From a virus (taxonomy: Duplodnaviria > Caudoviricetes), in the IMG/VR virus record IMGVR_UViG_3300044993_000766, positions 1 through 58,017 of that record: a DNA stretch of 58,017 nt; one strand, given 5' to 3'. The stretch's first letter is position 1; every line of letters begins with the position of its first letter. A program made the translations under genes and the position numbers. Positions 1,296 to 58,017 of the stretch are shown here, one piece after another. Under the pieces are notes generated by a model. It saw only the letters and a list, made by a program, of their open reading frames with translations, was not told where the DNA came from and ran no database searches.

Positions 1296-4200
1296 TTAGC
1301 CGCCGCCCCCACCGCCGCCATCACCACCCCCACCGTCGCCTTGTGGTCCTTGTGCCGGCGACATTGAGCGCGCGCCCATCCGCATCGTCGGCCCCTTTGG
1401 ACCATCATCGTCCTGCTGCATCGCAATCTGCTGCGCCTGCTCCATCGCATGCTCGCGTGCTTGCATCACAGCCTGGGAGACAACGGACGACTGTTCAAGC
1501 GACTGCGATAGCGCCTGCTCCACGTTAATCGGAACCCGTCGATGCGCGGGGTCATCCAATGAGCCCTGTACGACAAAGAGCGTATCTGGGCGTCCTGTCT
1601 GCGGGTTAACCTTGCCGGGCACGATGTGGTCGTAGCTGGTTATGTTCCATCCTTCGGCCGCCAACGACATAGCCACAACAGATGCACCTAGCTTTTGGCG
1701 CTCATGCTGGGTCAGGCCACCCATGCCGGGGGCAACCTCGATCTGCGACAGAACGTTTTGCGCCCGTAGATACATGCCGTGGGCCGCATGCTTGGGTTCT
1801 GTGACGAGCGGGCCAGCCGACGATGCTGGCTCGGAGGTCGGCGTGTGTCCATGACGCTGATCGTCGGTCGGCTTGTGGTCCTCCTCGCGCTCGTCCCGCA
1901 TCGATGGGGGACGGATTAGCGCCGGATCGGGTGTAGTCGCAATTATCAAAGTAGAGGGCGCATCAATGCGCACGACCGGCTCCGGCTCACGCTCCTTGTC
2001 GTCTTCGACACTACGCCCACCTGAGATGGAAGGGCTGACAGAACGCGGTGCAATCACCGGTTGTGGCGCATCCGGTTCGGACTTTGGGTCGATCAAGAGC
2101 GAGCGGATCGGCGTTGCCTGTTCCGCGCGTTCGCGTTCGCGCTGTGCGGCTAAAGCTTGATCCACAGCATCGCGCGTTCCTTGATCGGCCACCCCGGTTG
2201 CGGGAATGCCATGCATCGTCTGAAACTGGCGAATAGCGTGCTCGGTTTCGGGACCATAGCGGCCATTCTGCGGGATCTGCTCTCCATCAGGGCCACGATA
2301 GCCCTGCCGATCAAGGCGGTATTGCAATAGTTCGACTGAATCGCCGCGGTCGCCCAAGCGCAATGCGTTCGAGTCAGGGCCAGTCGGTTTTTCAGCCGCG
2401 TCTACGCGGGTCTGTTGTGGAGGGATGTCATCGGAACGCGGAGTCAGGGAATCGGGCTGGCGTTCCGGGGTCGCAGATGTCGCTGGTGTCCCATCATGTC
2501 CGATGGTCCGCATAGAAGTCCGTCGGTCCTCGTCTAGCACCTGGGTCTCGTCTGCCCCCCCCTGTTGGGGGGTGTTGCTTTCGGCCTCCATGCGTTCACG
2601 TTCCAGTCGAGAGGCACCATCTTCATGCGCGCTCTGCGCGAGCGCCAATGCGGCCGTTGCCACGAGTGGCACTTCCTGGGTAACGGCATCCTCCGGCATG
2701 CGTTCAGGCCGATGTGTACGCTCCGGCTCGCCCTGAATAGCACGCACCGCACCATTTTCCATCGTCATCCCGCGTGAAGCGACCGCTAGCGTCGCCGCTT
2801 GAACTGTCTCCTGCGTCTGTTCCTGAGACAGGCCTAGCCGGTTCGCTTCGCGCGCCGCCTGCTCGCGTGCGCCGCGCTCCTCCGGGGTCGCCAGTGCGAC
2901 TGCTCGCTCAAATGGCGCTGGGTACGGCGTATCCTCCGTTCTCGCACGCACATCGGCGAGCGCGCGATTGATGTCCTCTGGCGTTGTCACAGCGACGATA
3001 CGCACCACGCCGTCGGCATTCCGGTGGATATGATGAATCGGGCTGTCGGGGCTGTACTGCCCGCTCTCGTCTGTCCCCAGCACCGTCACTGTATTGTCGG
3101 GGCCTATCCCTGCGGCGGCTCTGGTGCGCTGCACAGCAAGGTAACTGGCCTCGAACAGTTCAGGCCGAATCTCACGGTTGATGTCGTGATCCAGGTACGC
3201 TGTGCGTAACAAGGCGCGATCCGCCTGCTCTGGCGTCGGTGGTTGCCAGGACGGCATCCGAGCCAGTTCTCGCTGGTGATCTTGTAGCGCGGGCAGCATA
3301 CGATCACGGGTCAGTTCCAGCTCTAGCGCACGTTGTGCATCTGCCGGTGCGCCGTCATGTATCCATGTCCCTTGCGTATCGCGCCGGTAATGCTTTCCGT
3401 CGGAGGCTTGACGCAGATCGGGGTCAAGTGCGGTCGTCACGGCCGCAGGCATGGTATCCGCTGGTGAGGGAGTCTGGTCGTAACCATAAGCCTTATGCCC
3501 TCGCTGATATTGGGCTGCGATTTCGGCCGAGCTTGCCCTCAGGTTTGCGTCGATGACCCGTACAGCCTGCGCACTCAACTGAGCAGCACGCTCGGGATCG
3601 GCCACGGTACGCTCGACATCGACTGGCATGCGTTCGTTGTCGAGCTTCGTTACGATCCAACGCTCCCACTCACCGCTATCGGCCTTGTAAGTCCAGTTCG
3701 CCGGCGTCTGCCCCAAACTGCTGCGATCTTGTGCATTTGCGGGCTGCACGAAAGGATCAATCGGCTCGGGCACTTTGGCGATGGCCAGTTCCACGGCTTT
3801 TGCACTCGCCAGAGCACTCAACTCGCGGTGCTTGTCGGGCGGGGCCGCAAAAGATTGCTCTTGCGGAATATCGCGACCGTCATCCAGCAAGTCACCACGC
3901 AAATCCTGACGAATCCACTGCTTGCCCGTGTACTTCCAGTTCACGCCCTCACTGGCGATATTGGTGATTCCGTACTGTTGCCACCAATCCACCGCGCGCT
4001 CGGCAGCGGTACCGAATAGGTATGCCTCGCCGAGCACGAGCAGCGCTGTGCCGCCCGTGCCCGTGCCTAAAGCCGCAGCGGTGGTGGTCGCAGCAGCGGC
4101 GCCAACGACAGCGCCCGCGGTTTGAGCGCCTTGGCGCAGATATGCGTCGTTCCCTGCGGTTTCGTTGCCGAGTGTATTTTTGAATACCTCTGCACGCTGG

Positions 4201-6479
4201 TGGGTCTGCGCCCATTCATAGCCAGTCAACCCAACCTCAAGCAGTACACCACCTACCGCCGCGCGGCGGATTCGGGCTCGCTCGATTGCTTCTGGCTCAT
4301 AGGGCAGCAATTCCACCTTCGCCTCACGCGACAGTCGGGCCATCAATCCTTCAACACCTGCCTGTTCAGGTGGGCCAACGTGCGGCGTCCGCTCCACCGG
4401 GCGTGCCAGCGTTTGCAGGCGTTGCGTCATTTCACTGGCCGGTTCGGGCGCCTGCTCTGGGGTATGCACCACCTGCCCGGGCCGCACAATATGGGTGTAG
4501 TCGGGCACCAGTTGCTTAACTTCGCCCGCAGGCGTACTGCGGTCTATCTTCGGCCAATGGCGGAACAGGGCATTGCCTTCTGTAGAATGGTGAATCACGT
4601 CCATTCGGGGGTCGATGGTTTCCGGTACCCGTTGGAAGATCGGTTCACCCGTCAATGCATTACGGAAATCCGTCATCAGGTTCAGGCTGCGGTCGCCCAA
4701 GCCGCTGCGGAAGTAACTCCCCGCGAGGTCCGAATGCGCGCCTGCCACTGTGACGCTCAAGAACCGTTTATCCGCAGAGTGCCCCTCGGGAATGATGCGG
4801 TCCACCGGGAACAAGCCGCGTTGCTCGTCCGCCGCATTGATTTGGAAACCTGAGACTACCGAGGGCGGCAGACGGCGGTCAAAAAAATCTTCCAGGTAGC
4901 CCGTCGGTACCGGGTCGTACAGGCCGACCGACATGGGCACTTGCCCAGGCGTGATGTGATGGCGCGTATATGTCCTGACCGTATTGCCGTGCTCGTCGAG
5001 GGATTCGATCGCGCTGCTGGGGTCGGGGAAGCCGCGCTCATGGATCATCCGGGCCAGCAACGGTACGGTGCTGGCACCCCGGCTGAAGCCTTCGAGATGG
5101 ATACTGATCCGGGCCTGCGGATCCGCTTTGAGTATCTGGTTGATGCGCTCTGCTAACTCCGCATACATATCTTCGGCGCGCGCCAGCGACGTGCGCCCCA
5201 GCGCACCGTCCACGGTATTTTCGATGAGGTTGGTCTGTGTGCCTGGGCCGGCACGATATACGAAATCAACATTCGTGAGTCCATCCCTACGTAAATCTCT
5301 GATTTGTTCACGCAATTTCGCGACATTCGTGGCATGCAAGGGATCGCGATCCACATCGTTGCCCGTGCCATCCAGCAGACCGAACAGCATGTAAGAATGC
5401 CGGTCGTTACGATCCCACAGCGCCGGCACTTTGAATTCGCGCATCTGCGCAGCGGCGCGGTCGTAACTCTGGAGCTGCTCGCGGCTTGCGATGTCGTGCG
5501 GCACATCATCATAGGGCAGCCCATCTGCGTCCAGCCTGATCCGGGTTTTCCCTGACGCCGCATTCGCTATCTTGTCATCCAGCGCATCGAGTGTCCTCGT
5601 AATTGTGGACCTGGGCGCGGATAGCAGATTCGCTGGTGACGAGTCAGGCGACGGTGCGCGCAAAGCATCAAGATGGCGCATGCCTGCTTGCGCGAAATCG
5701 CTGGGTGGGGCCATCCGGTCGGCGAGCGGCCGAGTGACGACCGTGAAAGCCGGCGGCTGCGCAGTCAGAGCCGTCCCAGTAAAATAAGCGCGGCTATCGA
5801 TCAATAATTGCCCTGCATCGCTATATAGCGGTTTTCCGGCATCGTTGACGGCCACATTCAGCTTGCCCACATTCTCATAAGAACGCGCCTGCACAGCCTC
5901 GAATGCAGCGTTGCCACCGCGGTCGGCTTGAAGGTTCGCCAAACTGATGCGGTCGATGTCTTCGATGGTGGTGACACGCTCGTTCGCCAGCACGCGCGGA
6001 AGCTCGCTCGCCCCGAACACGCGGTCCGGCTGGGCGAAGCTGGTGATGGTCCGCACCTCACCCACCGTCTCGGCCGCGAACTTGGCCGAAACGATGTCCC
6101 AGGCGCCGTCCGCGATGCGCTTGCCGTCCGGCCCGATCGTCCCGAACAGGAACTGGTTCGCTTTCGTTCCACTCTCCAGCGGGTCGCTTTCGAAGACGCG
6201 CTCCAGCGTCTCGATCAGTTGCTGATTGCGGCTTCTTTCCGAGTACACATCCAGAAACTTGAATGCTTCGGTCTTGTCGAGAACGCGCACGTCTTCCCCA
6301 GCACTCAGCATACCGCTGATGATTTCGGTCGATGCGATCTCCGGTGCTAACCTGCCGCTGTAGAGAACAGTGACAGACCCCTGTGCCTGAACATCCAACC
6401 TGCTGATGAGCGCGCGCAGTTCCGCTTCCGATTTGATGCCCGGTAATTCGGCATTAGCCTCGGCCGACGAAATATCCAT
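1296..6479 (-). CDS. Xanthomonadales T4SS effector (X-Tfe): ARC-like N-terminal domain, Tle1/DUF2235 phospholipase, PG-binding domain, C-terminal XVIPCD
   Basis: DGTGND, GFSRGA and GAHSD Tle1 motifs; LRLGDRGDSVELLQYRL...YGPETEHAIRQFQ PG_binding_1 signature; LFVVQGSLDDPAHRR...ALSQSLEQSS plus Q-rich tail typical of XVIPCD; GAGG RBS. Confidence 0.88.
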   Translation of the reverse strand: MDISSAEANAELPGIKSEAELRALISRLDVQAQGSVTVLYSGRLAPEIASTEIISGMLSAGEDVRVLDKTEAFKFLDVYSERSRNQQLIETLERVFESDPLESGTKANQFLFGTIGPDGKRIADGAWDIVSAKFAAETVGEVRTITSFAQPDRVFGASELPRVLANERVTTIEDIDRISLANLQADRGGNAAFEAVQARSYENVGKLNVAVNDAGKPLYSDAGQLLIDSRAYFTGTALTAQPPAFTVVTRPLADRMAPPSDFAQAGMRHLDALRAPSPDSSPANLLSAPRSTITRTLDALDDKIANAASGKTRIRLDADGLPYDDVPHDIASREQLQSYDRAAAQMREFKVPALWDRNDRHSYMLFGLLDGTGNDVDRDPLHATNVAKLREQIRDLRRDGLTNVDFVYRAGPGTQTNLIENTVDGALGRTSLARAEDMYAELAERINQILKADPQARISIHLEGFSRGASTVPLLARMIHERGFPDPSSAIESLDEHGNTVRTYTRHHITPGQVPMSVGLYDPVPTGYLEDFFDRRLPPSVVSGFQINAADEQRGLFPVDRIIPEGHSADKRFLSVTVAGAHSDLAGSYFRSGLGDRSLNLMTDFRNALTGEPIFQRVPETIDPRMDVIHHSTEGNALFRHWPKIDRSTPAGEVKQLVPDYTHIVRPGQVVHTPEQAPEPASEMTQRLQTLARPVERTPHVGPPEQAGVEGLMARLSREAKVELLPYEPEAIERARIRRAAVGGVLLEVGLTGYEWAQTHQRAEVFKNTLGNETAGNDAYLRQGAQTAGAVVGAAAATTTAAALGTGTGGTALLVLGEAYLFGTAAERAVDWWQQYGITNIASEGVNWKYTGKQWIRQDLRGDLLDDGRDIPQEQSFAAPPDKHRELSALASAKAVELAIAKVPEPIDPFVQPANAQDRSSLGQTPANWTYKADSGEWERWIVTKLDNERMPVDVERTVADPERAAQLSAQAVRVIDANLRASSAEIAAQYQRGHKAYGYDQTPSPADTMPAAVTTALDPDLRQASDGKHYRRDTQGTWIHDGAPADAQRALELELTRDRMLPALQDHQRELARMPSWQPPTPEQADRALLRTAYLDHDINREIRPELFEASYLAVQRTRAAAGIGPDNTVTVLGTDESGQYSPDSPIHHIHRNADGVVRIVAVTTPEDINRALADVRARTEDTPYPAPFERAVALATPEERGAREQAAREANRLGLSQEQTQETVQAATLAVASRGMTMENGAVRAIQGEPERTHRPERMPEDAVTQEVPLVATAALALAQSAHEDGASRLERERMEAESNTPQQGGADETQVLDEDRRTSMRTIGHDGTPATSATPERQPDSLTPRSDDIPPQQTRVDAAEKPTGPDSNALRLGDRGDSVELLQYRLDRQGYRGPDGEQIPQNGRYGPETEHAIRQFQTMHGIPATGVADQGTRDAVDQALAAQRERERAEQATPIRSLLIDPKSEPDAPQPVIAPRSVSPSISGGRSVEDDKEREPEPVVRIDAPSTLIIATTPDPALIRPPSMRDEREEDHKPTDDQRHGHTPTSEPASSAGPLVTEPKHAAHGMYLRAQNVLSQIEVAPGMGGLTQHERQKLGASVVAMSLAAEGWNITSYDHIVPGKVNPQTGRPDTLFVVQGSLDDPAHRRVPINVEQALSQSLEQSSVVSQAVMQAREHAMEQAQQIAMQQDDDGPKGPTMRMGARSMSPAQGPQGDGGGGDGGGGGGG

Positions 6480-6488
6480 GTGCGGGCC

Positions 6489-6932
6489 TCAGAACTCGAA
6501 CGACACGATCGTGTTAGGAATCTGCTTCCTTGCGCCGTCGTAGCCCCTCGCAGTCAATGCTTCCTTGAGCGTTTCGATGACTTGGCGCAGGCGCACGTCG
6601 TCGAGGTCGTCTGGATAGATTTGGACGATCTTCCCCCAAGCCACGCGATACGGCGATTCGCTTAGCGTTTTCGACCCGCTTGCCCTGTCCACCTTGACGA
6701 AAAATTTTTGCCCATCCATCTCCAGCAGGAATTCGATCCAATACTCCCCATCGCGCGCTGGATTGGCGCCGCGTATTTGGCGGAGGATGATGTTCCGCTC
6801 CCGGTCGATGGTCCATTGCGGGGCGTAATTGTCCGGCAACTTCATCTCGCCCGGATACATGGCCAAATATGACTTGGCAAGCCCATATGTCTCGATGTCC
6901 TCGGCGGACACATATTCATTGACAAACGCCAT
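6489..6932 (-). CDS. Putative cytoplasmic immunity protein (MAFVNEY...WTIDRER type)
   Basis: Start reassigned to ATG 6932 with GGAG RBS; directly upstream of the effector; small, no signal peptide. Confidence 0.6.
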   Translation of the reverse strand: MAFVNEYVSAEDIETYGLAKSYLAMYPGEMKLPDNYAPQWTIDRERNIILRQIRGANPARDGEYWIEFLLEMDGQKFFVKVDRASGSKTLSESPYRVAWGKIVQIYPDDLDDVRLRQVIETLKEALTARGYDGARKQIPNTIVSFEF

Positions 6933-6948
6933 CGTTGCTCTCCGCAGG

Positions 6949-7485
6949 TCAAAATGTCTTTGTCCACGCCAGCTTAAGGTCGCGCAGACTATCGCTGTTC
7001 CTGACCGCCGGGTCACGGGGCTGCTTAAGTTCCACCAAACCGCGCATGTAGACATTGATCGTGCGGTCATTGACTTCGAGAAGGATCTCTACACGTCGCG
7101 AGCGATCGTCCAAACCCCACCCATCCTTGACCTCATGCTCTTGCGCGTTATGCAGAACCAGGCGATCGGGGAATATCTTCTCGAAGTTCAGCTTTGTGCT
7201 CCGCGCAACTCCATCCATGGCCGTCCACCAAATTTCAATGATCGGCGAGAAGACATCACTCGGCATGATGGCGAACCCTGCGGTCCAGTCGTCTTTCCAG
7301 TCGGGGCTCCTGGGTTCGCCGGACGAACTGAATCGGTTCCTTTGGGAAATATGCTGTTGGTTTATGAATATGACCGAGCATTCAAGGGTGTTATAGCATC
7401 TGGCGTCAAAACTAAATCTGTCGAACCTCAACGGCCACGGCTCGCGCGGCACTCTTTTCTTGAACAGTTTTCCGAGAATAAACAT
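6949..7485 (-). CDS. Putative immunity protein of the type found beside Tle1-like XVIPCD effectors
   Basis: WPLRF..FSFDARCYNTLEC and ILLEVNDRTINVYMR motifs resemble Xanthomonadales X-Tfi proteins (from memory); probable start ATG 7485 with GAGG RBS; ORF is open to 7767. Confidence 0.62.
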   Translation of the reverse strand: MFILGKLFKKRVPREPWPLRFDRFSFDARCYNTLECSVIFINQQHISQRNRFSSSGEPRSPDWKDDWTAGFAIMPSDVFSPIIEIWWTAMDGVARSTKLNFEKIFPDRLVLHNAQEHEVKDGWGLDDRSRRVEILLEVNDRTINVYMRGLVELKQPRDPAVRNSDSLRDLKLAWTKTF

Positions 7486-7896
7486 TTCAGCACCCTCTGG
7501 ATCGGTCGGAATTTCGTCTACGGCTAAAGCTGTCTGCACAGGAGTCGTTCGCTTTGGCAGGTTGGGCTTGCGCTTGGTCTGCACCGGCACGCCGCCAGCA
7601 GGCATTGGGCCATTTTCGCGCAAAGTCCTTTCATTAGCGATCTGCATGTCCCGAAGAAGCTGGAGGTCGTGATGGGTATCCTTTTTGCGCAAAGCCGAGG
7701 GCCTGCCCAAGTCTGACTCACCACTGGATTCGTTTGGATTCATCTGTACATCAGCCTGCGAACGCATCCATCATGAAATTCAGACCTGCCATGCGACAGC
7801 CTTTTACTGATCTGACTCCTACTTTTGATGCCTTCATGTTCAAAACCTATCCTCAATTTACTGGCGCCTTGCGCCGATAGTAGCGGCACAAAATTA

Positions 7897-9240
7897 TCAG
7901 TGGATAGCAAAATCAATTGATGCGCCTTTCTTGATCGAAATTCGATGGATCATGTGCGTGCCGTATGTCCTCCAGTACGCCTCCCACTCACTCTCTGGGC
8001 ACTCAAAGGTGAAGGCCCACACCATTTCAAGCGCCTCATCAATGGCAATGCACTTGTGCACGATTTCGTTCGTTCGGCCGGGTTCTCTATCCCGATACCT
8101 CAGCGTGACCACCCTCAAACCGTTTTCAGTATGATCGTCCTCGATCAATCTATCGCCATCTTCAATTCGGATTTCAAAATGAAGAATATAGTCGCGATAG
8201 ACGCGATCCCCTCCGGGCCAATAGCCGGATTTCATTCCGCTCATGACGTGTAAGGTGAAGCCCGTCTCAAACGGTTCTTCTCGCGAGAAGCGCGCCGGGC
8301 TCGTCGCATACACATCCGTGGCAATACCATCTCTTACTGGACGCGCCTCCAGCGCAACCACATGCCATGACTCGGGCTGAAAAAAGAAGGCATTTCCGAA
8401 CTCCACCCACCTGAAACCGTAGGGCACTGGGACCACTCTTACAGCAGATGTCCCTAATTCTGCGACATTGTCAGCGCCCATATTTGACGATGCGGCAATG
8501 CGCGCCTCATCTTTGTTCGATGCAATCCAAGCCGATGATTGTCCCGTCACATGACCCAAGGCAGGTTCAGGCTGGCGTTGTGAATTTGCGGATGAATCGG
8601 CATTGCTCGGCTTTCTGGTGAGCTTTCGTTGACTTGGCAGTCTGTCGCGGTCGTCCAGAAAGCCTGTCCACCGCGCAATCCAATATGCGCTCGTTGCCGC
8701 AACCCAAGTCCAACCCAAGCCGATCAGGGTGCCCCTTAACGTCATGCTGCTACTGATGAGCACCAAAGTAAAAACGATGGGCGAGAGCACGATCACCGGA
8801 ATAAGCCCGATCAACATTGGCTTAACGATCCACCTCCATTCCGGCAGACTGAGAATCGCAGCTTTTGCAGCGCGATGACTTTCCTCGCGCAAGCGCGATG
8901 CCAGGACCAGACGGTCTATAACCGACATCAGACGCTGCCGATTGTCCAGACGGGAATACCACCCGCTGGCCAATCTGCGACGCAACATTTCACGCGCTTC
9001 GGCGGACCCCTTGATGACGATCCATACTGAATAGAAGGATGCGATAAGCACAGGCGGAACAGCGCATGCAATGACGAGGCCTAACTGACTTCCAAAGACC
9101 TCAATAGCAAAGCCTTCAGACCGCGTAGACATCAGGTTGGGCAAAATCTCAATCGCGATCCAGCCAAACATGGCCGCCCATGCAGCAAGCACGAACGCAA
9201 TCATGATCCTGTCGATGAACTTACCTAGAATTCTCCACAT
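7897..9240 (-). CDS. Membrane protein (about 4 TM) with C-terminal soluble domain, function unknown
   Basis: 447-aa ORF with four hydrophobic segments in the N-terminal half; lower GC than the phage core. Confidence 0.7.
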   Translation of the reverse strand: MWRILGKFIDRIMIAFVLAAWAAMFGWIAIEILPNLMSTRSEGFAIEVFGSQLGLVIACAVPPVLIASFYSVWIVIKGSAEAREMLRRRLASGWYSRLDNRQRLMSVIDRLVLASRLREESHRAAKAAILSLPEWRWIVKPMLIGLIPVIVLSPIVFTLVLISSSMTLRGTLIGLGWTWVAATSAYWIARWTGFLDDRDRLPSQRKLTRKPSNADSSANSQRQPEPALGHVTGQSSAWIASNKDEARIAASSNMGADNVAELGTSAVRVVPVPYGFRWVEFGNAFFFQPESWHVVALEARPVRDGIATDVYATSPARFSREEPFETGFTLHVMSGMKSGYWPGGDRVYRDYILHFEIRIEDGDRLIEDDHTENGLRVVTLRYRDREPGRTNEIVHKCIAIDEALEMVWAFTFECPESEWEAYWRTYGTHMIHRISIKKGASIDFAIH

Positions 9241-9504
9241 ACAATTTTTCCCTCCGCATGCTTATACCCGCATCCTGCTTTTTTAGGCTCTTATTCTGTA
9301 CTTAATCACAATCTTGGACCTAGTTCATTTTGCACACCGCATCATGCTGCGACCCAGGGCTAAAAGCGTCCAGCAACACCATGGTTAAGGAAACAGGTAT
9401 AGCACAATCGCTAGCGCCACCCTTGCCCAAAACAATACCAAATCCGCGATGACTTCAATGGTAGTTCTTTCGTCTTCAAAGCGTCCACGACGGAGCGAAA
9501 ACAA

Positions 9505-9903
9505 TTAGTGGTTCCTCCTGCACGGGACTGGTTCCCCACGCTGAATCCGTTGGTAGATTTCTTCACGATGCACCGGCACGCTACGCGGGGCCTCGACGCC
9601 CACCCGCACCTGCCGCCCTCTTGCGAGGGCCGTCAGACCGCGCTTCGAACAGCCGTTGATACACACGACGAATTCTTCGCCAATGCGGAGCGACTCGCCC
9701 AGCAGAAGCGAAATCACATAGCGTCGATGGCGGCGCCCGTACTCTGAAGGCTCCACCAACACGTCGGCATCGTCCGTGACGGTCAACGCGGCAGGCGCAG
9801 CCAGCGCAACAGTGACGTGGCCCCGCACTTTTGAGCGGATGGTCAGCCGCACGCCATCACCGATGCGGATGCTTTCGCCCACGCGGCGCGTGAGGATCAA
9901 CAT
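9505..9903 (-). CDS. csrA: CsrA/RsmA-family protein with internally duplicated CsrA domain
   Basis: MLILTRRVGESIRIGD N-terminus, second LLGESLRIGEE repeat, C-terminal QVRVGVEAPRSVPVHREEIYQRIQ. Confidence 0.9.
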   Translation of the reverse strand: MLILTRRVGESIRIGDGVRLTIRSKVRGHVTVALAAPAALTVTDDADVLVEPSEYGRRHRRYVISLLLGESLRIGEEFVVCINGCSKRGLTALARGRQVRVGVEAPRSVPVHREEIYQRIQRGEPVPCRRNH

Positions 9904-10086
9904 AGCGCACCCCACCTACTGCTGTATGAGACACTTTGCTGCCAACAGGGCGCGCACCGGCTAGCGCAATCTTTCACTAGACCGAACACGCTACCGCTTC
10001 CGTTTTGATCTACGATCAGCGCATCGATCTTCATCCTGTTTCTCCTTGAGAAATAACAGTGGAGTCGCCCGGCACGGCGGCTTGTC

Positions 10087-10461
10087 TCAAGCCTCCGAGT
10101 TCGCTGCTGAATGCCGCTGCTGCGCTGAGTCGCCACGACGAACGCTGCGGCCCGGCGCATCAATCTCCAATACGAAGCTGCGCAACACGGTCGCACCCAC
10201 CACAGGCGGCTGCCGGTCGATGCGTACCGTCATGCCTTTGACCCAGAACGTTTCGCCTGCGGCCAACCACAGCACGCCCACCACGTTCCCATGCGAGTCG
10301 CAATCGCTCTTGACGGTGTTCGACCGAGGCTCCTCGCCATCCGCGCACTGCTGTGCCGTGACCATGACGAGGCAGCAGTCAGCGTCTTTGCCAATCACCA
10401 CCATCCGCACGTCATCGCCGATCCAGACCGGTTCGCGCACGGCCACTTGCATGCGCACCAC
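10087..10461 (-). CDS. Divergent tandem CsrA-like protein
   Basis: GTG start with GAGG RBS gives MVRMQVAVREPVWIGDDV, colinear with the CsrA N-terminus; second repeat LAAGETFWV...LEIDAP. Confidence 0.62.
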   Translation of the reverse strand: MVRMQVAVREPVWIGDDVRMVVIGKDADCCLVMVTAQQCADGEEPRSNTVKSDCDSHGNVVGVLWLAAGETFWVKGMTVRIDRQPPVVGATVLRSFVLEIDAPGRSVRRGDSAQQRHSAANSEA

Positions 10462-10554
10462 ACTTTGCCTCTGCCTTCTGCAACGGGACTGCCTATGTAC
10501 CTTATTGCCGCCACGCTCGCAACAAACACTTGTAGCATGTAGCAACATTTTACA

Positions 10555-10860
10555 TTAGCGCTTGCCGGTCGCGACCGCCCTGCGTTTGGTCACGGGCCGG
10601 CGGCCCAGGGCGCTACGCGCGACCGACCGCGCCGGCCGCTTTGGCGATGCGGGCACACTGTCGATGAGCAGCAGCAAGCGATGCGTCGCAGCGCCTGCAC
10701 CCAAGGCGACCGGCAGCGGCTCGCCGTTACTGCCGCACAGGCTGGCTTGCTCGGGCAGGGTGAAGTCGATCGCCCAGCCACCGACCAAGGGCTGCACACG
10801 GATATCGAGACCATGCAGCATCGCGGGGATGGAAGGCGCTTGCGCGCGACTACGGGGCAT
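10555..10860 (-). CDS. Small hypothetical protein in the CsrA-like operon
   Basis: ATG 10860 with AAGGA RBS overlapping the upstream gene's stop region. Confidence 0.5.
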   Translation of the reverse strand: MPRSRAQAPSIPAMLHGLDIRVQPLVGGWAIDFTLPEQASLCGSNGEPLPVALGAGAATHRLLLLIDSVPASPKRPARSVARSALGRRPVTKRRAVATGKR

Positions 10861-11281
10861 GCAGAGGTTCCTTCTGTCGTAGATGAAGAAGCGGTACACA
10901 GGCGGCCGGGCGCACTGGGGGCCTGGGGCGCAGGCGCGCGCGCAGCCGCGCATGGCGCGCAATGGCCAGCTCTTGCGGGGCATCTACGCAGACCCGGTAC
11001 GGGCGCAGCAAGCTGGCCGCAGTAGGCATCGCGAGCGTCTCAATCCGCAGATACGTCGCACCCACCCAGAAGCCAGCACCAGGGGCGAGGGCCAACACCG
11101 AACTGATCCAGCCCGCATCGCCAGGGGTGCTGGCGCGAAACCCGCGCTCGACGACCAGGGCGCAGTCCCAGGCGGTTTCGACAAACACGTAGATCAACCC
11201 CGCCGCGCACCCTGTCACTTGCAGACAAGCGCCGACGCCCAATTGCAAGCGTTCCCCTGCGGCGCAGTCGATCGCGCCCAT
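10850..11281 (-). CDS. Divergent tandem CsrA-like protein
   Basis: MGAIDCAAGERLQLG..., second repeat LAPGAGFWVG...RVCVDAPQELAIAR; TGAATG coupling to the upstream gene. Confidence 0.62.
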   Translation of the reverse strand: MGAIDCAAGERLQLGVGACLQVTGCAAGLIYVFVETAWDCALVVERGFRASTPGDAGWISSVLALAPGAGFWVGATYLRIETLAMPTAASLLRPYRVCVDAPQELAIARHARLRARLRPRPPVRPAACVPLLHLRQKEPLHAP

Positions 11282-11719
11282 TCACGGCCCACTCGAAAGT
11301 TGCCGGCGCCCGTCACCGTCCATCCGCGACATGGGCAGCGCGGTCGCAACGGGCGCCGGCAGGAGGGCAGGGTTGGAGGCAACAGGCTGCGCAGCATCGC
11401 CCGCACGGCGCTGCGTAATGCCGATATGAAGCCAGTTGTCGCAGTCCGCGGCCAGCGGCACCAGCTCGCCGGGCAACCAGACCTGAACCTCGAACGGCCC
11501 GAGGGTGAACCTGCGGAGGGCTTGCAGGGAAAACAAATAGGTCCAGACGCCCACCGTGCCGGCAATGGGGGTGACAGGCGCACCGTCCAGCGTGAGGCGG
11601 GTGCCGGCAGGCGCGGTCGCGCCCAGAACCACCCTCTCCCCCTGCCGGCGGTGGATCGCGATTCGAATGTTCTCACCGAGGCGCAGCGCGCACCCGATCT
11701 GGCATGTCTCGACCCGCAT
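11282..11719 (-). CDS. Divergent CsrA-like protein, first gene of the operon
   Basis: MRVETCQIGCALRLGENIRIAIHRRQGERVVLGATAP matches the CsrA beta-strand pattern (GxxVxLGIxAP); GGAGG RBS. Confidence 0.68.
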   Translation of the reverse strand: MRVETCQIGCALRLGENIRIAIHRRQGERVVLGATAPAGTRLTLDGAPVTPIAGTVGVWTYLFSLQALRRFTLGPFEVQVWLPGELVPLAADCDNWLHIGITQRRAGDAAQPVASNPALLPAPVATALPMSRMDGDGRRQLSSGP

Positions 11720-11766
11720 CCTGCGCCTCCCTTATTCCCGTGGGCGGTGCCCACCGTTACCGGCCA

Positions 11767-11802
11767 AGGAAAGCATTGCTCAGAAGAATTGTCAATGGCA
11801 AT
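11767..11802. promoter_or_regulatory. Divergent promoter/operator between the csrA-like operon and the repressor
   Basis: Minus-strand TTGACA (11790-11795) with 17-bp spacer to TG-n-TTTCCT; near-perfect inverted repeat ATTGTCA-A-TGGCAAT at 11788-11802 overlaps it. Confidence 0.5.
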
Positions 11803-11847
11803 ATTTATTTCTATCGGAAAGTCTCCAGGTCGAGTAGGATCGCGATC

Positions 11848-12510
11848 ATGAACAAGTACACCGAGGCTTTGGTCGCCGCGATGGGCAAGAGACGCATCCG
11901 CAGCCGGACGCTTGCTGCGGAAGTCGGCACGATCAGTGAAAACGCTATCGCGCAATGGCGCAGCGGCCGGCGTCCGGTCCCGGTCGAGTACGCACCCAAG
12001 CTGGCGAAGTTGCTTGGCGTACCGCCGCAGTCCATCAGCGAATCCTACGATCGACTTCTGCAATCCGGTGTCATCACGTCTGCGGAGGGCGGCCACGAAG
12101 CATGGGCAAATCCGCCTGCGGGCCATGCAGTCATTGAGCGATTGATAGGGTTTGGCCGTGCGGACGAACAGGAGCGGCTCTGGCTGCCGGAACTCATGCT
12201 GCGGCGGGAATTGGGCGCGACACCGATCGAGAATGTCCGTTGGGTCACACTACATTCGCGGACGATGGAACCGGAAATCAAACGCCATGCCGTGGTGCTG
12301 GTGGACATCAGCGCCACCCGGCATGAGGAGGTCGTCGATGGCCGACTGTACGCCTACTCGCTACTCGGGCGGTCAGATATTCGTCGGATCACGATTCGTC
12401 GGGATGCCTGGATACTGATCGGCGACAACGAAGAACGGATCAAGACCAGCGTACCTACCGCGGACTTGCCGGAGCTTCACTTGCTTGGCATGGTCATCGG
12501 CTGGCTATGA
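11848..12510 (+). CDS. XRE-type HTH repressor with S24-like C-terminal domain, probably non-autocleaving
   Basis: HTH SENAIAQWRSGRRPVP; C-terminal SRTMEPEI...VVLVD...DGRLY...IRRI...GDN...LLGMVI; ATG 11848 with AGGA RBS. Confidence 0.85.
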   Translation: MNKYTEALVAAMGKRRIRSRTLAAEVGTISENAIAQWRSGRRPVPVEYAPKLAKLLGVPPQSISESYDRLLQSGVITSAEGGHEAWANPPAGHAVIERLIGFGRADEQERLWLPELMLRRELGATPIENVRWVTLHSRTMEPEIKRHAVVLVDISATRHEEVVDGRLYAYSLLGRSDIRRITIRRDAWILIGDNEERIKTSVPTADLPELHLLGMVIGWL

Positions 12511-12633
12511 CGGCGGTATTTGCGCCTAGAATACGCCAGACGCAGGCTGCTGAGCATAACAGGCGGACACCCCGGGGCTGCATCACCAGCCGGCACAAGG
12601 AACAGGGAGCAGGACGTGGATTACCCCAATGGA

Positions 12634-14136
12634 ATGAGAATCGCGAAAGGACTGGCGCTCGCCATCGGCTATTGCATTGCCTATCTCGTACTTCGCTATT
12701 TCTCATATGACCAATGGTTTCTTCCGGCAGGATTACGGGCGGTCTGTCTTTTCTTTTTGCCCTATCGATATTGGCCACTTGTTTTCATAGGAGATGCCGC
12801 CGCAGTGATGTATGGGCGCATCCCGGCAGAAACCGAAAAAAATCAGATCTGGGTTTATCTTGGCCCATTTATGCTGATTGCAGGGACCTCAATTGCACCA
12901 TATTTACTTCGAAAAAGGCTGGCGAACGCACAAGCGATTGCGCATAGATTGCCGATTGCGGCCGCATGTATCTCGGCATGGGGCGGCATTTGCACAGTTG
13001 CGTTAAACGCGACACTTGGAGGTCCAGATGAATACGCTACGTTGGATTTTTTTATAACAAAACTCTTTGCAAATTATTTGGGCGCACTGCTGGGGCTGCT
13101 GCCATTTCTGATTTGGATCAATAGGCACCACTATATAGGACAACTTAAAAAAGCGGCACGAAATATTGTGCTTTCGGCCATATCGATTGCACTCATGTTT
13201 GCCTACTTGGAATACTGGCACACAGGTAGCGAAGTAGCGAGAAAAGCGGTACTAATGCTGATGATCTGTCCAGCGTTGTTTCTCACTTACTATCACGGGT
13301 GGCTAGGCGCAGCATTCGGCGTCATTCTTGTCAATATCGGCATCGCACAGACTATGACCTATATGCGAACTCCCGGTATTCCAGTCCCATACGACGAAAG
13401 CGTTTTTCTCGCTCAGATCGGACTATCCATCGCAGCGTCCGCTTTTCTGATCCTGGGAACGAGAATTACGTCCCATTACGAGAATGCGATTGAATCAGGT
13501 GTCGCAGAAAAAAAAGCCAGGAAAATATCGCGCATAGCACTACTCTCGAACGAAGAAGACGCCCGAGACCAAGTTATTTGCATGGCACAGCTACATTTAC
13601 TTCTGGATGAAAAACAGGAAGAACTTGTCCACTGGCTCAAGGCTAACGGCAAACATGAGGAGGCTTTCAACCTCAAAAGCAGTGGTGCGCAACGGCGTAA
13701 GAAGTTCCATGAGAATGCCTTGGCGGTTTACCCCATCGGCATCGAAGAAAAGGGCTTATTCGCCGTCATCCACTCGCAGACCTTCGAGGATCGATGGACA
13801 AACGGTATACCGATGGCGATCAGTCTGGATAAAGGCGACCCGAAGAAACTCTCCATTGAATTGCAAGTCGCTGCATACCGCTGCCTGTGTAGCGCGGTTG
13901 TGCTGATGTGCGACTGGAGGCCAGAAGAGCTGCACATGCGCGTTCGTGTCTGGCAGACAACCTTGCACCGAGGCGTCTATTTCTCAGTGTCAGCATTCCG
14001 CCCAGGAGAACCACAAGCGACTCAGGCGGGCGCTGCTTCCTCTTTGTATCTCGACGCAAAGGTCAGTGCGCATGGCGGCATTCTGCGCCACCATGCGCAC
14101 CGAGTTAGCGTCCTGCTTGCGGAAGAAATGACTTAG
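12634..14136 (+). CDS. MASE1 membrane sensor with degenerate histidine-kinase-like C-terminus
   Basis: WFLPAGLRAVCLFFLPYRYWP MASE1 signature, many TM helices; YPIGIEEKGL and LQVAAYRCL resemble HisKA_3/HATPase linkers; start may be GTG 12616. Confidence 0.82.
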   Translation: MRIAKGLALAIGYCIAYLVLRYFSYDQWFLPAGLRAVCLFFLPYRYWPLVFIGDAAAVMYGRIPAETEKNQIWVYLGPFMLIAGTSIAPYLLRKRLANAQAIAHRLPIAAACISAWGGICTVALNATLGGPDEYATLDFFITKLFANYLGALLGLLPFLIWINRHHYIGQLKKAARNIVLSAISIALMFAYLEYWHTGSEVARKAVLMLMICPALFLTYYHGWLGAAFGVILVNIGIAQTMTYMRTPGIPVPYDESVFLAQIGLSIAASAFLILGTRITSHYENAIESGVAEKKARKISRIALLSNEEDARDQVICMAQLHLLLDEKQEELVHWLKANGKHEEAFNLKSSGAQRRKKFHENALAVYPIGIEEKGLFAVIHSQTFEDRWTNGIPMAISLDKGDPKKLSIELQVAAYRCLCSAVVLMCDWRPEELHMRVRVWQTTLHRGVYFSVSAFRPGEPQATQAGAASSLYLDAKVSAHGGILRHHAHRVSVLLAEEMT

Positions 14137-14154
14137 ATCGCAAGGCTTATGCGC

Positions 14155-14556
14155 TTACTCCGCGGGCCGAACGATCCAGCGATCTTGATCCGACTGCCGG
14201 TAGAAGATGACCTCAATCTTGTTGTCCCGATACACCATGCGGCCTGTGACCGGGGACTGCTCATCGGTCTGAATTACCCAAGACGTTGCGTCGATTTGCA
14301 GGGCCGAAACACGCACCCCGCTCACTGCGTTATTGATTTCCATATAGCGGACGCCCTGCCATGTGGCCTCCTGCTTCTGCCAAGCAGGGTCGCGCACCAA
14401 ATCAACGACGTTGGGCATCGTTGACGCCGAACCGCTCGTTACTTTTGGTGCATCACCGCCAGTACCTACTTGCGCATGGGCAGAAGCACTGGTGAACATC
14501 GTCGCAAGCAGCAGAACTGCAAGTGCGATCGCATATCGGAAAGCCGGAATGGCCAT
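14155..14556 (-). CDS. Small secreted/periplasmic protein
   Basis: Sec signal peptide ending ASAHA-Q; convergent with the MASE1 gene. Confidence 0.75.
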   Translation of the reverse strand: MAIPAFRYAIALAVLLLATMFTSASAHAQVGTGGDAPKVTSGSASTMPNVVDLVRDPAWQKQEATWQGVRYMEINNAVSGVRVSALQIDATSWVIQTDEQSPVTGRMVYRDNKIEVIFYRQSDQDRWIVRPAE

Positions 14557-14745
14557 GTCAATCTCCTTGAAAATGTCCGTGATATGTGTGTTAGCGCATG
14601 CACTTCAAAATCTGACATGCGCTAACAGTTTTGCGCCCGCAAGATATAGCGTCTCCGGGGCTGTAGGACGGTAGCACCACCACACGTAGCGCAATGTGCG
14701 CATGCCACAGTCCGCCATCCAGTTCCCGTTACTGTCTGCGTTGGG

Positions 14746-17700
14746 TCATTCACCGCCAACACCTTCTTCTTCAGCAATTCGCTGCCGCAGTGCCGCATCG
14801 TAGGCAACACCGTTTTCGGCCCGTTTGCTGTATGCCTCACGCGCGCGCAGCGAGCGGCGGATGGTCTGCCCAGTGATGGGCTTTTCGGGGTACGCCTTGT
14901 TGAAGGCCAGTATCTTCCGGCGCACTTCGAGTGCCGCGTCCTGATCGTCCATACGCAGCGCCATGGCATAGGCCGCCAACAGCGCCTTGCGACGGTCGAG
15001 AATGTGTCGCTCGCGGTCCTTGAGTGCGCGATTCACGGCGTACTGCCGCGCCACTTCGGCCGGCGTGAAGCCGATGGCCTGCAAGAATTCATCCTTGAAG
15101 TCGGTATCGGTCACGAGGTCGCCGCGCGTGGAGGTGACGCCTTCTTCGGCATAGCGCAGCGCCTTCATCGCATCCTTGAGCGCCTTGGGCAACATGGTCT
15201 CCACACCGCGATAGACCTGACCTTCGGCAATCAACTGCGTGCCGACAAAGAAGTTTTTTGCGATGCCGAACATCGGCCCCGCCACGTTGTCCATCATGGC
15301 GTAGTAGGCATCGCGGCCGTCCAGTTCGCGATCGGCATCGCGCCACAGCAGTTGCGACATTTCCACGCGGCTGGCGATGTCGGCGCCCGTCAGTGTGTTC
15401 GCTGCACCGTTCATTGCGACTTCCGCGCCAGCTTCACCCAGAAACTGCGCGAGGAATTTGCGGATTTCGGCCTCGGTATCCCACGGGTCGTCCTCATCGC
15501 CGAATGCATGCGCGATAGCGTCGATCACGCCGATGGACAGCGACGCCATCGGCAGGCCCATCGCGCCGGAGAAAAAACCACTCATGACCAGCACACCAGC
15601 AAGATTGCGCCGCGCCAGCCGGCGCACTTCGGGGCTGTCGCCTCGGGTCGCCTTCCAGCCCATACGGCCCAGGTGCCAAAGCATGTTCAGACCGTACTGC
15701 TTGAACATCAGCACGATCTTCGCTGGCCCCGATTGCAGGTAGCGTGCGCGGTTAGCGTTGCTGTAGTTGAAGTGGGTCGCGGTAATGGTGTCGGCCGCAA
15801 AACGCACGGCGGCATCGAATGATTGCCCCGCGTCGCGCGCAAGGCGATAGGCCGCCATGCCGGACGCTTCGCGGTTCAGCACTTCTGCGGTGTGAAACAG
15901 CCAGCCGATGAGTTCCATCGCGCGCGCCAGCTTGGGGTTGTAGGTGGCAAGACCGCCCTCGGCCAGCCCCATCAGCGCGTGGGTCTGCGTCTTGTCGAGC
16001 ACACCGGCCTGCTGCAAAGCGGCGTGGGCTTTGACCTCATCCGGGCGCTTGAGCACCTTCTGCGCATGTCCGGCCGTGCGCGCCGAGTCGTTCATGGCGC
16101 GCATGAGGTGGCGCATGGCGTTCGCCGGGCCGAATTGCGACGCCAACTGCGGGAAGGTCAGGACGGCGGTCTGAGTGAGGTTGACCAGCGCCGCCGCTGG
16201 CGTCACACCCAGGAAGTAGACAAAGCCGATCGAGGACAGACGGTTGGTCATCGCGCTGTCCTGCGGATTCAGCACCCACTGGTGACGCTGATCCAGCTCG
16301 CCGAGGATGGCGTCCATCGCGACGACAGCACGGGTGTCGGTGTCCGGCTCGCGCCTGCGAATATCCTGCGCCTCACGCAGATCCGCCAAGGTGCGCTCCA
16401 GCACATGCCCATACCGCAGCCGCGCGAGCTGATGCGCGCCATGTGCCATGTTGTGAGCGAAGGCGCGCAGCGCATCAGGATCGAAGCCGGCGACGCCTTG
16501 CCGGTGGATCGCATGCTTGCGCATCGACAACTCCGGCAGCGTTTGCAGGTAGGTTTGATAGATCGCGTCCTGCGTTTTCTCCGACACACCGGCTTTACGC
16601 AGTTGTTCGATCACGTCGGCGACGAACGAGCCGCTGGGCGCGTCCTTGGCTTGCGCGCCGCGCAGCCGACCGCGAGCCTTGACCGCGAATCCGCGCGCCT
16701 TGAACGCCGCTTCCCTGCGCTCAAGCGCGGCCGGACTGTCGAGCATGAGAAACACCGGCTCGCCGTCGCGCTCGGCCGCTATGAAGTATTCGCCGTATCG
16801 CTGCAAGGGGAAGTAGACGCCCTGAAGGCGATGGGTCTCGAACTGCTGTCGAATCGAAAACACCAGCTTGCGCTTGAGGCCGTCCGGCGCCTCGCTGGCT
16901 TCGATGCGCTGAGCGAGCGCGTCTTCGACTTGCTGGGAGCGGTCGCGGTACAGGTTACGCATCTGCCGGTAGAAGCCCTGCGCCTCCGGCGACAATGCCT
17001 GCCACTGCGCGCGAAGCGTCGGGTAGATGCGCTTTCGGGATTCCTCGCGCCCCGGCATGCCGCGCAAGCGGCGGGCTTCTTCCATCATGTCGATCTTGTT
17101 GTCGGCGCTGCGCCCGAGCATCTGCTCGCGCAGGGCTTTGAGCGCCTCGCGGATATTCTTGCGATTAGCATCGTGCAACTGCCCGCCATAGCGGAATTGC
17201 AGCACCTGGTACGCCTCGGCCGGATCGACGCCTTCGAGCGTCGCCCGGTGCATCAGATCGAACAAACGCTTGGCCTCGGCCTTGTGGCGTCCGGCCCAGC
17301 GGCGGACGCTCTCGGCGAGGTCCGCACCCTCCTCCAGCAGTGCGTTACGGTCGGCCGACATGGCGTCGAGCTGGCGGGAGAATCCGGCGATGGCCGGGTC
17401 GTAGTCGCTGCCCAGTTCGGTCAGGTGGTTGGTGGCCAGTGCGCCCAGCCAGACGCTGCGGCTGGCGTCCTTGAGTTTGGCCGGGGTGCTGTCGCGCAGC
17501 CACTGTCGCACGCGATCAAGCCGGCTTGCGTCTTCATCCTGCCGCACTACGGCGTCCACGTCGGCCAGAAAACCCTCCGGCGCACGCCGGCTGAACATCG
17601 GCAACCCCTCCGCGACGGCGGTCCGCATGGCGGGTGTGATGTCGAGGGCGTGAACGTCCAGTGGAGGCGACCGGAAGCGCGGACGAATCTGTGCGGTCTT

Positions 17701-53130: not shown

Positions 53131-53203
53131 TGGTGGCGGGGACCGGAGTCGAACCGGCGTCTTGGGCAGATGAAGCCCGAGCGGGACCACTCCTCACCCC
53201 GCG
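53131..53203 (-). tRNA. Atypical initiator-like tRNA-Met (anticodon CAT)
   Basis: CGCGGGG...CCCCGCC-ACCA acceptor with unpaired first base, GCCGG-TTCGACT-CCGGT T-arm, GGGC-TTCATCT-GCCC anticodon arm, encoded CCA. Confidence 0.8.
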
Positions 53204-57276: not shown

Positions 57277-58017
57277 ATGACGCCGCGCCCTCACAGCTCA
57301 AAACCCTCACCAGCCGACATCGCCGCTGCCCAGCGCCTCCGCGCACACTGGCTGGAACGCGGCAGCAAGCCGACCCAGCTCCAACTCGCCACCGCCCTGG
57401 GCGTGACCCAGGGCGCGATCAGTCATTACCTGAACGGTCGGAACAAGATGAGCTTCACGACGCTCGCGCTGCTCTGCCGGGAATTGGAAATCGACCCCTC
57501 GGCGATCCGCACCGATCTACCTGAACAGCAGTTGCTGTCCTCGCCGAATGAGGCGGCCACCGGGCGGGTGTCTATCGCAGCCACTGAGACGCGCGGAGCC
57601 TACGTTCGTGTCTCACAGCTAGACGCGACAGCAGCAATGGGCGAAGGCACGATCAACGCGGATTACCCTGAAATCATAGGCTCGATCGACATCGCGGCGA
57701 GCTATTTGCGCAACCTCTTCGGTTACGTGCCGCCGGCCGGACGCCTACGCATCATCACCGGCCGGGGCGAGTCGATGGCCCCCAAGATCATGCCCGGCGA
57801 TACCTTGATCGTGGATACCGGCATTACCGCTTACCAAGGGGATGGCATCTACTTGGTCAACAGCGGCCACGGTCAGCAGATCAAACTGCTACAGGATCGC
57901 GGCGATGCGCTCTACGTGTGCAGCGTCAACCCCGACTACCCCGCCTTCCCCGCGCCGCGATCATTGGTCATCGGCGGCAAGGTCTGCGTGAAGAACCGTT
58001 TTGAGCGGCTTGAATAA
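57277..58017 (+). CDS. cI: CI-like repressor (XRE HTH + S24 peptidase)
   Basis: TQLQLATALGVTQGAISHYLNG HTH; AAMG cleavage region; GESMAP Ser and QIKLL Lys catalytic dyad. Confidence 0.93.
   Translation: MTPRPHSSKPSPADIAAAQRLRAHWLERGSKPTQLQLATALGVTQGAISHYLNGRNKMSFTTLALLCRELEIDPSAIRTDLPEQQLLSSPNEAATGRVSIAATETRGAYVRVSQLDATAAMGEGTINADYPEIIGSIDIAASYLRNLFGYVPPAGRLRIITGRGESMAPKIMPGDTLIVDTGITAYQGDGIYLVNSGHGQQIKLLQDRGDALYVCSVNPDYPAFPAPRSLVIGGKVCVKNRFERLE

Follow-up and report, generated by a model that had tools for sequence, protein, structure and literature searches.

The stretch of DNA analysed here (the window) comprises all 58,017 nucleotides of the IMG/VR record IMGVR_UViG_3300044993_000766. 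It is a provirus record and a genuine prophage, the host of which is of the Lysobacterales type (Lysobacter-like). The accessory (cargo) part of the prophage, between the integrase and the virion genes, contains a cluster of genes encoding relatives of the translational regulator CsrA, which are referred to as P1 to P4. A preliminary description of the locus had reported four open reading frames (ORFs), identified by their N-termini and about twice as long as CsrA, and all four are present on the minus strand:

9505-9903, minus strand: P1, 132 amino acids
10087-10461, minus strand: P2, 124 amino acids, GTG start codon
10850-11281, minus strand: P3, 143 amino acids
11282-11719, minus strand: P4, 145 amino acids

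CsrA/RsmA (PF02599), the fold of which is a five-stranded barrel with a helix at the C-terminus, is a homodimer of chains of approximately 60 amino acids that swap beta1 and beta5, whereas P1 to P4 are single chains of 124 to 145 amino acids, each with two repeats. According to PMC7652899, each RNA surface of CsrA consists of strand beta1 and strand beta5 of opposing monomers, and residues L4 and R44 are critical. P1 is built as follows:

9769-9903, minus strand: residues 1-45, N-repeat, helix absent
9724-9768, minus strand: residues 46-60, basic linker
9508-9723, minus strand: residues 61-132, C-repeat including the helix

As judged by profile matches, P1 is a true tandem CsrA, both repeats of which are members of the family. 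The Pfam CsrA profile matches the protein twice (E 5.2e-22), and the two halves reach 41.1 and 39 bits when scored singly, both above the cut-off of 27 bits. The cut-offs of the NCBIfam CsrA equivalogs are exceeded as well (76.1/73 and 71.4/70.1), and CsrA chains of the PDB match P1 at E 1e-20. A word-index search with the family profile revealed 82 P1-type proteins of 128 to 161 amino acids, which score 145 to 245 bits and cover 87 to 100% of P1; below this set, the scores drop to 125 bits or less, and canonical CsrA is reached at about 76 bits. In a profile scan of genome contigs with the P1 family, the matches listed were mostly canonical CsrA. The P1-type proteins are annotated in their sources merely as 'carbon storage regulator'.

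The RNA-binding residues of CsrA (L2, L4, R6 and R7 of beta1; V42, H43, R44 and E45 of beta5) are retained on one composite surface of P1, not on both. In an alignment of 88 rows, which combines the 82 P1-type proteins with four other tandem forms and two loci, L2 and L4 of the N-repeat are present in all rows (88/88 each), R6 in 85/88 and R7 in 77/88, and the C-repeat conserves the H (83/88), R (87/88) and both E residues (88/88 and 84/88) of its VHREE segment. The equivalent of R44 in the N-repeat is Asp in 79/88 rows, and the R6/R7 equivalents in the C-repeat are hydrophobic. Read from this pattern, the intact surface of P1 is composed of N-repeat beta1 (L2, L4, R6, R7) and C-repeat beta5 and helix (VHREE), and the symmetry-related surface is acidic and has lost its arginines. 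The net charges of the two composite surfaces in the P1 family are +2.90 versus -0.69, with 86/88 rows being asymmetric, and canonical CsrA carries +2.82 at the positions equivalent to the P1 surface. In the family, the linker carries a net charge of +4.3, its median length being 17 residues. The earlier proposal of a single-chain P1 in which one RNA surface is intact and the other degenerate is therefore borne out by the charge asymmetry of its relatives, and the motifs LTRR and VHREE are, as had been claimed, confined to P1 among the four proteins. We infer that P1 folds as a single-chain pseudo-dimer.

P3 and P2 form one family, which by profile comparison is homologous to tandem CsrA over both repeats. 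No Pfam match was obtained for P2 or P3, and PHROGs gave no match to P2, P3 or ORF5, a further ORF of the cluster that is located between them. When P3 was used as a lone query, the word index returned two relatives; a profile of ten sequences, searched against 1.84 billion representatives, recovered 44 proteins at E<=1e-3, 26 of them at E<=1e-10. The family alignment contains 35 of these 44 proteins, three long repetitive and six short or partial proteins being excluded. Among the weaker rows of the P3/P2 profile are two-repeat proteins of full length that carry LTRR and VHREE; they constitute a sequence bridge to tandem CsrA. Six bridge rows were removed for hhalign, leaving a profile of 38 rows, and each of the following comparisons was controlled with 30 column-shuffled profiles. 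Against canonical CsrA, the P3/P2 N-repeat reached 97.3% (score 47.9, shuffle maximum 16.6) and the C-repeat 94.5% (35.2, shuffle maximum 14.7); at full length, the family aligned with the P1 family over 112 columns at 98.4% (81.3, shuffle maximum 15.5). A search of the PDB with the 35-row profile free of bridge rows returned CsrA for all of the top nine matches (E 1.3e-4 to 6.8e-3), followed by the next match at E 0.25. P2 itself aligned with the P3 family over 98 columns at 94.7%. In the tree, P2 and P0126 (96% identical) are located on a long branch outside the core clade of P3.

P4 belongs to a larger family, which has 146 members at E<=0.01. Pfam CsrA matches only the N-terminal part of P4, with 13.7 and 15.1 bits and hence below the 27-bit cut-off, and a precomputed CsrA Pfam match exists for 7 of the 120 P4-family members listed. 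The N-repeat is matched to CsrA at 97 to 97.8% by hhalign, and the top eight matches of a PDB search with P4 were all CsrA (E 5.5e-4 to 0.022). Full-length alignments extend into the second repeat, covering 81 columns of P1 at 96.7% and 80 columns of P3 at 98.0%. When the analysis was restricted to the Lysobacter-type P4 subfamily, the second repeat aligned with the P1 C-repeat over 53 columns (62.5%, 27.0 versus a shuffle maximum of 15.2) and with the P3 C-repeat at 86.9% (29.9 versus 15.2). A model from the Atlas aligns residues 1-105 of P4 with a CsrA cluster of 105 amino acids at template modelling scores of 0.56/0.75. The second repeat has a signature of its own: F63, S64, W81, A90 and G100 are found in 93/93 rows, C93 in 92/93 and H98 in 91/93. 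The tail that follows it is poorly conserved. We read P4 as a probable two-repeat derivative with a remodelled second repeat. A pattern scan of viral contigs for P4 as a single protein gave no match, though P4 homologues do occur there.

Taken as profiles, the families score 35 to 57 against canonical CsrA with shuffle maxima of 14 to 17, which substantiates the CsrA-likeness claimed for the four ORFs; the unrelated overlapping ORF5, compared with the P1 family as a control, reached 0.1% by hhalign. That all four are two-repeat members of the CsrA superfamily had also been suggested; the double length and the homology support this, and the part that did not hold directly is the second repeat of P4, which does not match CsrA directly (0.4%). 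The terminal xAP of the second repeat, claimed for at least three of the proteins, was seen in P1, P2 and P3; P4 of the window has no xAP. Residues of the CsrA turns and core are retained (G9, E10, G15, A36-P37 and the G33-equivalent). N-repeats match N-repeats at 94 to 98%, and C-repeats match C-repeats better than N-repeats, which argues for a shared two-repeat ancestor of P3, P2, P4 and P1. This fits a history in which a single old tandem duplication came first and duplication of the gene later. Local serial duplication and decay as the origin of the array was rejected: instead of the 'progressively diverged array' described before, the cluster combines three old, co-travelling paralogous families, P1, P3/P2 and P4, with P2 on its separate long branch and not a recent copy of P3. 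Other two-repeat CsrA proteins were also encountered, namely P0251 and P0252, in which both repeats are intact, and the compact forms P0256, P0267 and a protein of locus L010 (6001-6345), which have approximately 100 to 114 amino acids. Given this diversity of forms, CsrA repeats seem to have been fused in tandem on more than one occasion.

High-GC DNA yields long chance ORFs in many frames, and the absence of Pfam matches for P2 and P3 could suggest that the divergent ORFs arose by chance or are decaying csrA pseudogenes, and that P1 owes its tandem structure to an assembly or annotation error that fused two adjacent genes. The data contradict this explanation, which is highly improbable. The GC content at third codon positions (GC3) of the genes in the cluster is 0.73 to 0.81 (0.77 for P2), and the large memberships of the P4 (146) and P3/P2 (44) families do not agree with chance ORFs. 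Median pairwise ratios of nonsynonymous to synonymous substitution rates (dN/dS) are 0.34 for P4, 0.29 for P3 and 0.36 for P1, and pairs that are unsaturated (dS < 0.5) show 0.08 to 0.39 for P4 and 0.10 to 0.21 for P3. The P1, P3 and P4 families are thus under purifying selection, and decay into pseudogenes was rejected on these ratios. A fusion artefact is countered by the 82 P1-type proteins, which come from many sources and share the same asymmetry.

The residues by which CsrA binds GGA-containing RNA are not shared by the other three proteins. None is retained in P4, and the P3/P2 family has lost them except for the R44-equivalent, which is present in 36/38 rows, and an L4-equivalent that is hydrophobic. 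R6 is replaced by Cys (Cys6) in 81/93 rows of P4 and 31/38 rows of P3/P2. One interpretation is that P2, P3 and P4 still bind RNA with a specificity changed from GGA and would act as several independent post-transcriptional regulators. The R44- and L4-equivalents of P3/P2 lie on the same composite surface, the C-terminal tails are rich in Arg, and all three families are under purifying selection. However, the R6/R7 equivalents are replaced by Asp-Cys in P3 and by Thr/Cys-Gln in P4, P4 of the window has no HREE-like segment, and no candidate target motif was found. This interpretation is considered rather unlikely. Since P2 to P4 lack the GGA-binding residues, yet are subject to purifying selection and have acquired invariant residues of their own, they are better regarded as putative non-GGA partners or modulators, or as proteins for another ligand.

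The surroundings of the four genes comprise the following features:

10555-10863, minus strand: ORF5, coding-like, between P3 and P2; not CsrA-like
11848-12510, plus strand: regulator with a helix-turn-helix (HTH_3) domain and an S24-like domain, divergent from P4
12520-14136, plus strand: MASE1 membrane-sensor protein (Pfam MASE1, E 5.7e-21)
7897-9240, minus strand: o447, cargo downstream of P1 in the same direction
6949-7767, minus strand: o272, cargo downstream of P1 in the same direction
6489-7070, minus strand: o193, cargo downstream of P1 in the same direction
1296-6479, minus strand: X-Tfe-type effector of 1727 amino acids with Tle1-like lipase, PG_binding_1 and XVIPCD domains
1-1239: integrase, a prophage gene
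57277-58017: CI-like S24 repressor of the prophage, which retains both Ser and Lys of the dyad

The order of transcription on the minus strand is P4, P3, ORF5, P2, P1, o447, o272, o193 and the effector gene. The conservation of this arrangement was assessed in 15 loci, 11 of which are distinct, so that 12 distinct loci were available together with the window. P4, P3 and P1 occur together in 10/12 distinct loci, one of which is truncated within P1 at a contig end, and the S24-like/MASE1 pair also adjoins the cluster in 10/12. In locus L004 (2030-5088), the pair is replaced by a hybrid histidine kinase and a REC-GerE regulator. Locus L008 has a P2/P3-like gene and P1 but no P4, and in Lysobacter brunescens only the S24-like and MASE1 genes occur with P4, P3 and P1 being absent. 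P2 and ORF5 found no match in the other fetched loci by tblastn (174 fetched loci in the case of ORF5) and therefore look like a lineage-particular insertion. Eight distinct loci have at least 3 kb of sequence downstream: six contain an o272-like gene and an X-Tfe homologue, one has ORFs without Pfam matches, and in L171 a TcB-like gene (7420-10707, plus strand; SpvB, FG-GAP and TcdB middle/N domains) follows the cluster and no X-Tfe is present. The TcB-like gene suggests that the cassette may accompany varied toxin cargo. By a rough proxy for co-occurrence, identical size of the longest contig, 30 of the 82 P1-type rows pair with a row of the P4 family. The claim that the cluster is conserved and resides on mobile DNA thus holds, the latter also with respect to the hallmark genes of a prophage found in the window (large terminase, SU10-type portal and adaptor, DnaB helicase, CI-like S24 repressor).

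The arrangement in L. brunescens also bears on a further explanation, in which P3 and P4 would now serve a role outside RNA binding, with the old barrel as a scaffold, for example for metal or redox sensing by Cys and His together with the S24-like and MASE1 proteins rather than with P1. Besides Cys6, C93 and H98 of P4 are nearly invariant, and the P4 gene of L. brunescens is accompanied by the S24 and MASE1 genes alone. On the other hand, P4 and P3 travel with P1 in most of the distinct loci, no known metal-binding family was matched, and conserved residues are all that this explanation is built on. We regard it as doubtful.

In reference collections the cassette is rare. The P4 family was found in 1/401 sampled genomes of the order and P1-type proteins at E<=1e-22 in 0/401, with ten candidates scored per genome; P4 had no match among 50,697 phage and 72,556 plasmid records. 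Single-repeat csrA genes were found in 15 phage and 39 plasmid records, and none of these 54 covers at least 80% of P1. Among the matches listed, the only close genome-contig match was L169 (the L084 contig), 4349 bases in a metagenome-assembled genome titled Bosea sp. The remaining relatives with a name belong to Lysobacter or Xanthomonadaceae, and the Bosea assignment may be a binning error.

The effector is an X-Tfe (Xanthomonadales type IV secretion effector) according to its domains, the XVIPCD domain scoring 49.6 bits against the 24.9-bit cut-off of PF20410 (X-Tfes_XVIPCD), and it is predicted to be an antibacterial toxin. The divergently encoded regulator matches Pfam HTH_3 at E 7e-6 and Peptidase_S24 with 22.5 bits, slightly below the cut-off of 23.3. 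Its Ser/Lys dyad is missing: Thr and Arg are present here, and among ten homologues Ser occurs in 2/10 and Lys in 0/10 (Arg in 10/10). The regulator is therefore probably not a self-cleaving SOS repressor. The C-terminal 228 amino acids of the MASE1 protein gave no Pfam match even at E<=1, and in NCBIfam only a faint UhpB-like match. ORF5 has a GC3 of 0.80 and an AAGGA ribosome-binding site in front of its ATG (10861-10863), which overlaps the P3 stop codon; it gave no Pfam, PHROG or PADLOC match and shows no similarity to the 93-amino-acid ORF of L008. No PADLOC match was obtained among ten proteins. In another part of the window, a gene for a polyvalent protein of 4724 amino acids (14746-28920, minus strand) encodes LPD39, Eco57I-type methylase and helicase domains, and the prophage carries a tRNA-Met gene (53131-53203, minus strand).

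The stop codon of P4 and the start codon of P3 abut (TGAATG), no terminator-like site was found within 9500-11800, and Rfam has no match in 6000-15000. Two copies of a GGA-type motif are of interest for the regulation of the cluster:

11716-11724, minus strand: GCAGGATGC, which contains the start codon of P4 and lies just downstream of a GGGAG Shine-Dalgarno sequence
9270-9278: second copy of GCAGGATGC, in the leader of o447

The window contains five copies of GCAGGATGC versus 1.0 expected, a number reached in 0/100 shuffles, and the motif is present at the P4 start in 7/11 loci. This hints at a candidate GGA-type binding site and, possibly, at autoregulation. The low-GC spacer between P2 and P1 contains a small ORF of 46 codons (9897-10037, minus strand; ATG at 10035-10037), with AAGGAG upstream and two further GGA motifs; its GC3 is just 0.59, and it may therefore be a leader rather than a gene. 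In the divergent promoter region (11740-11800, minus strand), the window and related loci share a conserved TTGACAAT...GCAATGNTTTNCTTG block. An inverted repeat in this region varies in sequence among loci, with double changes in 5/7 pairs, and its consensus hairpin is weak (-1.66 kcal/mol).

Taken together, the preferred interpretation is that the locus is a prophage-cargo operon of single-chain two-repeat CsrA-superfamily proteins, in which P1 acts as a monovalent translational regulator and its paralogs do not bind GGA; a probability of roughly 0.55 is assigned to it. Homology, architecture, residue asymmetry, selection and synteny are shown by the data, and the fold and RNA binding of the proteins, their stoichiometry, their targets and their roles as partners are inferred. 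Since a single surface of P1 is intact, each molecule would be expected to bind one GGA site. P1 could occlude the Shine-Dalgarno sequence or ribosome-binding site and would not be able to bridge two sites as CsrA dimers do. P2 to P4 would have lost the binding of GGA RNA and serve as partners or modulators, or recognize another ligand. The gene order suggests that the divergent S24-like helix-turn-helix regulator and the MASE1 sensor may control the operon, and that the operon may tune how the co-directional toxin/immunity cargo, and perhaps host CsrA targets, are translated. As reported in PMC7286519, CsrA of the host represses the operon of the Xanthomonadales type IV secretion system (X-T4SS) in X. 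citri; a phage-borne CsrA encoded beside an effector of the X-T4SS could thus act on this circuit.

Several observations weigh against this interpretation. P2 taken singly reaches 60.9% against the P1 family and a weak 17.9% against CsrA. The second repeat of the whole P4 family scores 18.2 against the P1 C-repeat, under the shuffle maximum of 22.6, which adds to its failure to match CsrA directly. The Atlas model of P3 is unusable, with a predicted local distance difference test (pLDDT) score of 0.42, and the Atlas search gave no usable structure or feature match; that of P4 is mediocre (pLDDT 0.60). Given the R44- and L4-equivalents, residual or altered RNA binding by P3/P2 is possible. The cases of L. 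brunescens and L008 show that the four proteins are not an obligate set. Finally, a promoter scan of 6300-12200 found none, the fold of the P4 leader is unexceptional (z -0.23), and the GCAGGATGC signal is weak.

A more far-reaching version of the model, which is unlikely, regards the mobile cassette as a new regulatory logic. Monovalent P1, being unable to bridge sites, might evade cooperative capture by sponge RNAs with several sites, and P1, or else the CsrA of the host, would be gated by the neofunctionalised pseudo-dimer paralogs P3/P2 and P4, which would respond to the MASE1/S24-like pair. In this way, type IV-secreted toxin/immunity genes, and possibly the CsrA-repressed secretion machine, might be coupled to an external signal.

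Engineered proteins provide the closest counterparts of P1. PMC5864733 describes Re-CsrA (PDB 5Z38), in which CsrA(1-44) is joined by a ten-residue linker to full CsrA; it has a native-dimer-like fold and retains one ligand site, formed by beta1', beta4, beta5 and the helix. Like Re-CsrA, P1 has a helix-less first repeat, a linker and a complete second repeat, and its intact site comprises beta1 of the first and beta5 and helix of the second repeat. Unlike Re-CsrA, it is natural and conserved, with at least 82 protein clusters; its basic linker measures some 17 residues, and the second surface has become acidic. P1 would fold in the same way as Re-CsrA. P1 also resembles the single-surface heterodimers of PMC7652899 in having one intact site. 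There, glgC is reported to be no longer fully repressed by dimers with one R44A pocket, since these cannot bridge, both pockets being needed. Of the relationships to CsrA/RsmA itself, both repeats of P1 are above the family threshold, and in P3/P2 and P4 the N-repeats are remotely homologous to the family; in contrast to CsrA/RsmA, P1 has one RNA surface instead of two, and P2 to P4 are below family thresholds and have lost binding residues.

CsrA-type regulators have also been reported on other mobile elements. RsmQ is a plasmid-borne CsrA homologue that also heterodimerises (PMC9928087), csrT/csrR are CsrA homologues on an integrative and conjugative element of Legionella, and phage and plasmid csrA alleles are described for Pseudomonas (PMC7366521). 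As far as these sources describe them, they share with P1 the location on a mobile element and a proposed interference with host translational control, and unlike P1 they are single-repeat dimerising proteins. The main text of PMC7366521 uses none of the words 'tandem', 'fusion' and 'fused', and literature searches found no description of a natural tandem or single-face CsrA, although paper supplements may list such proteins. For P2 to P4, the protein antagonists FliW and CesT are a precedent for modulators that bind at or near the RNA surface of CsrA, which is one possible role; neither is homologous to P2 to P4.

CsrA is the model of a symmetric dimer with two RNA faces, which achieves tight repression via bridging. 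Single-face CsrA has so far been described only as engineered proteins, as far as PMC7652899 and PMC5864733 show. A natural and conserved single-chain CsrA with one face would, if true, be a direct test of the purpose of bivalency. The degenerate paralog families, which are labelled 'hypothetical protein' in databases, are under selection, which suggests that the CsrA barrel may be reused for other roles. On prophages and islands, the cluster keeps a fixed place, with a sensor/regulator pair on one side and toxin cargo on the other, which suggests that mobile elements may bring post-transcriptional control of their own.

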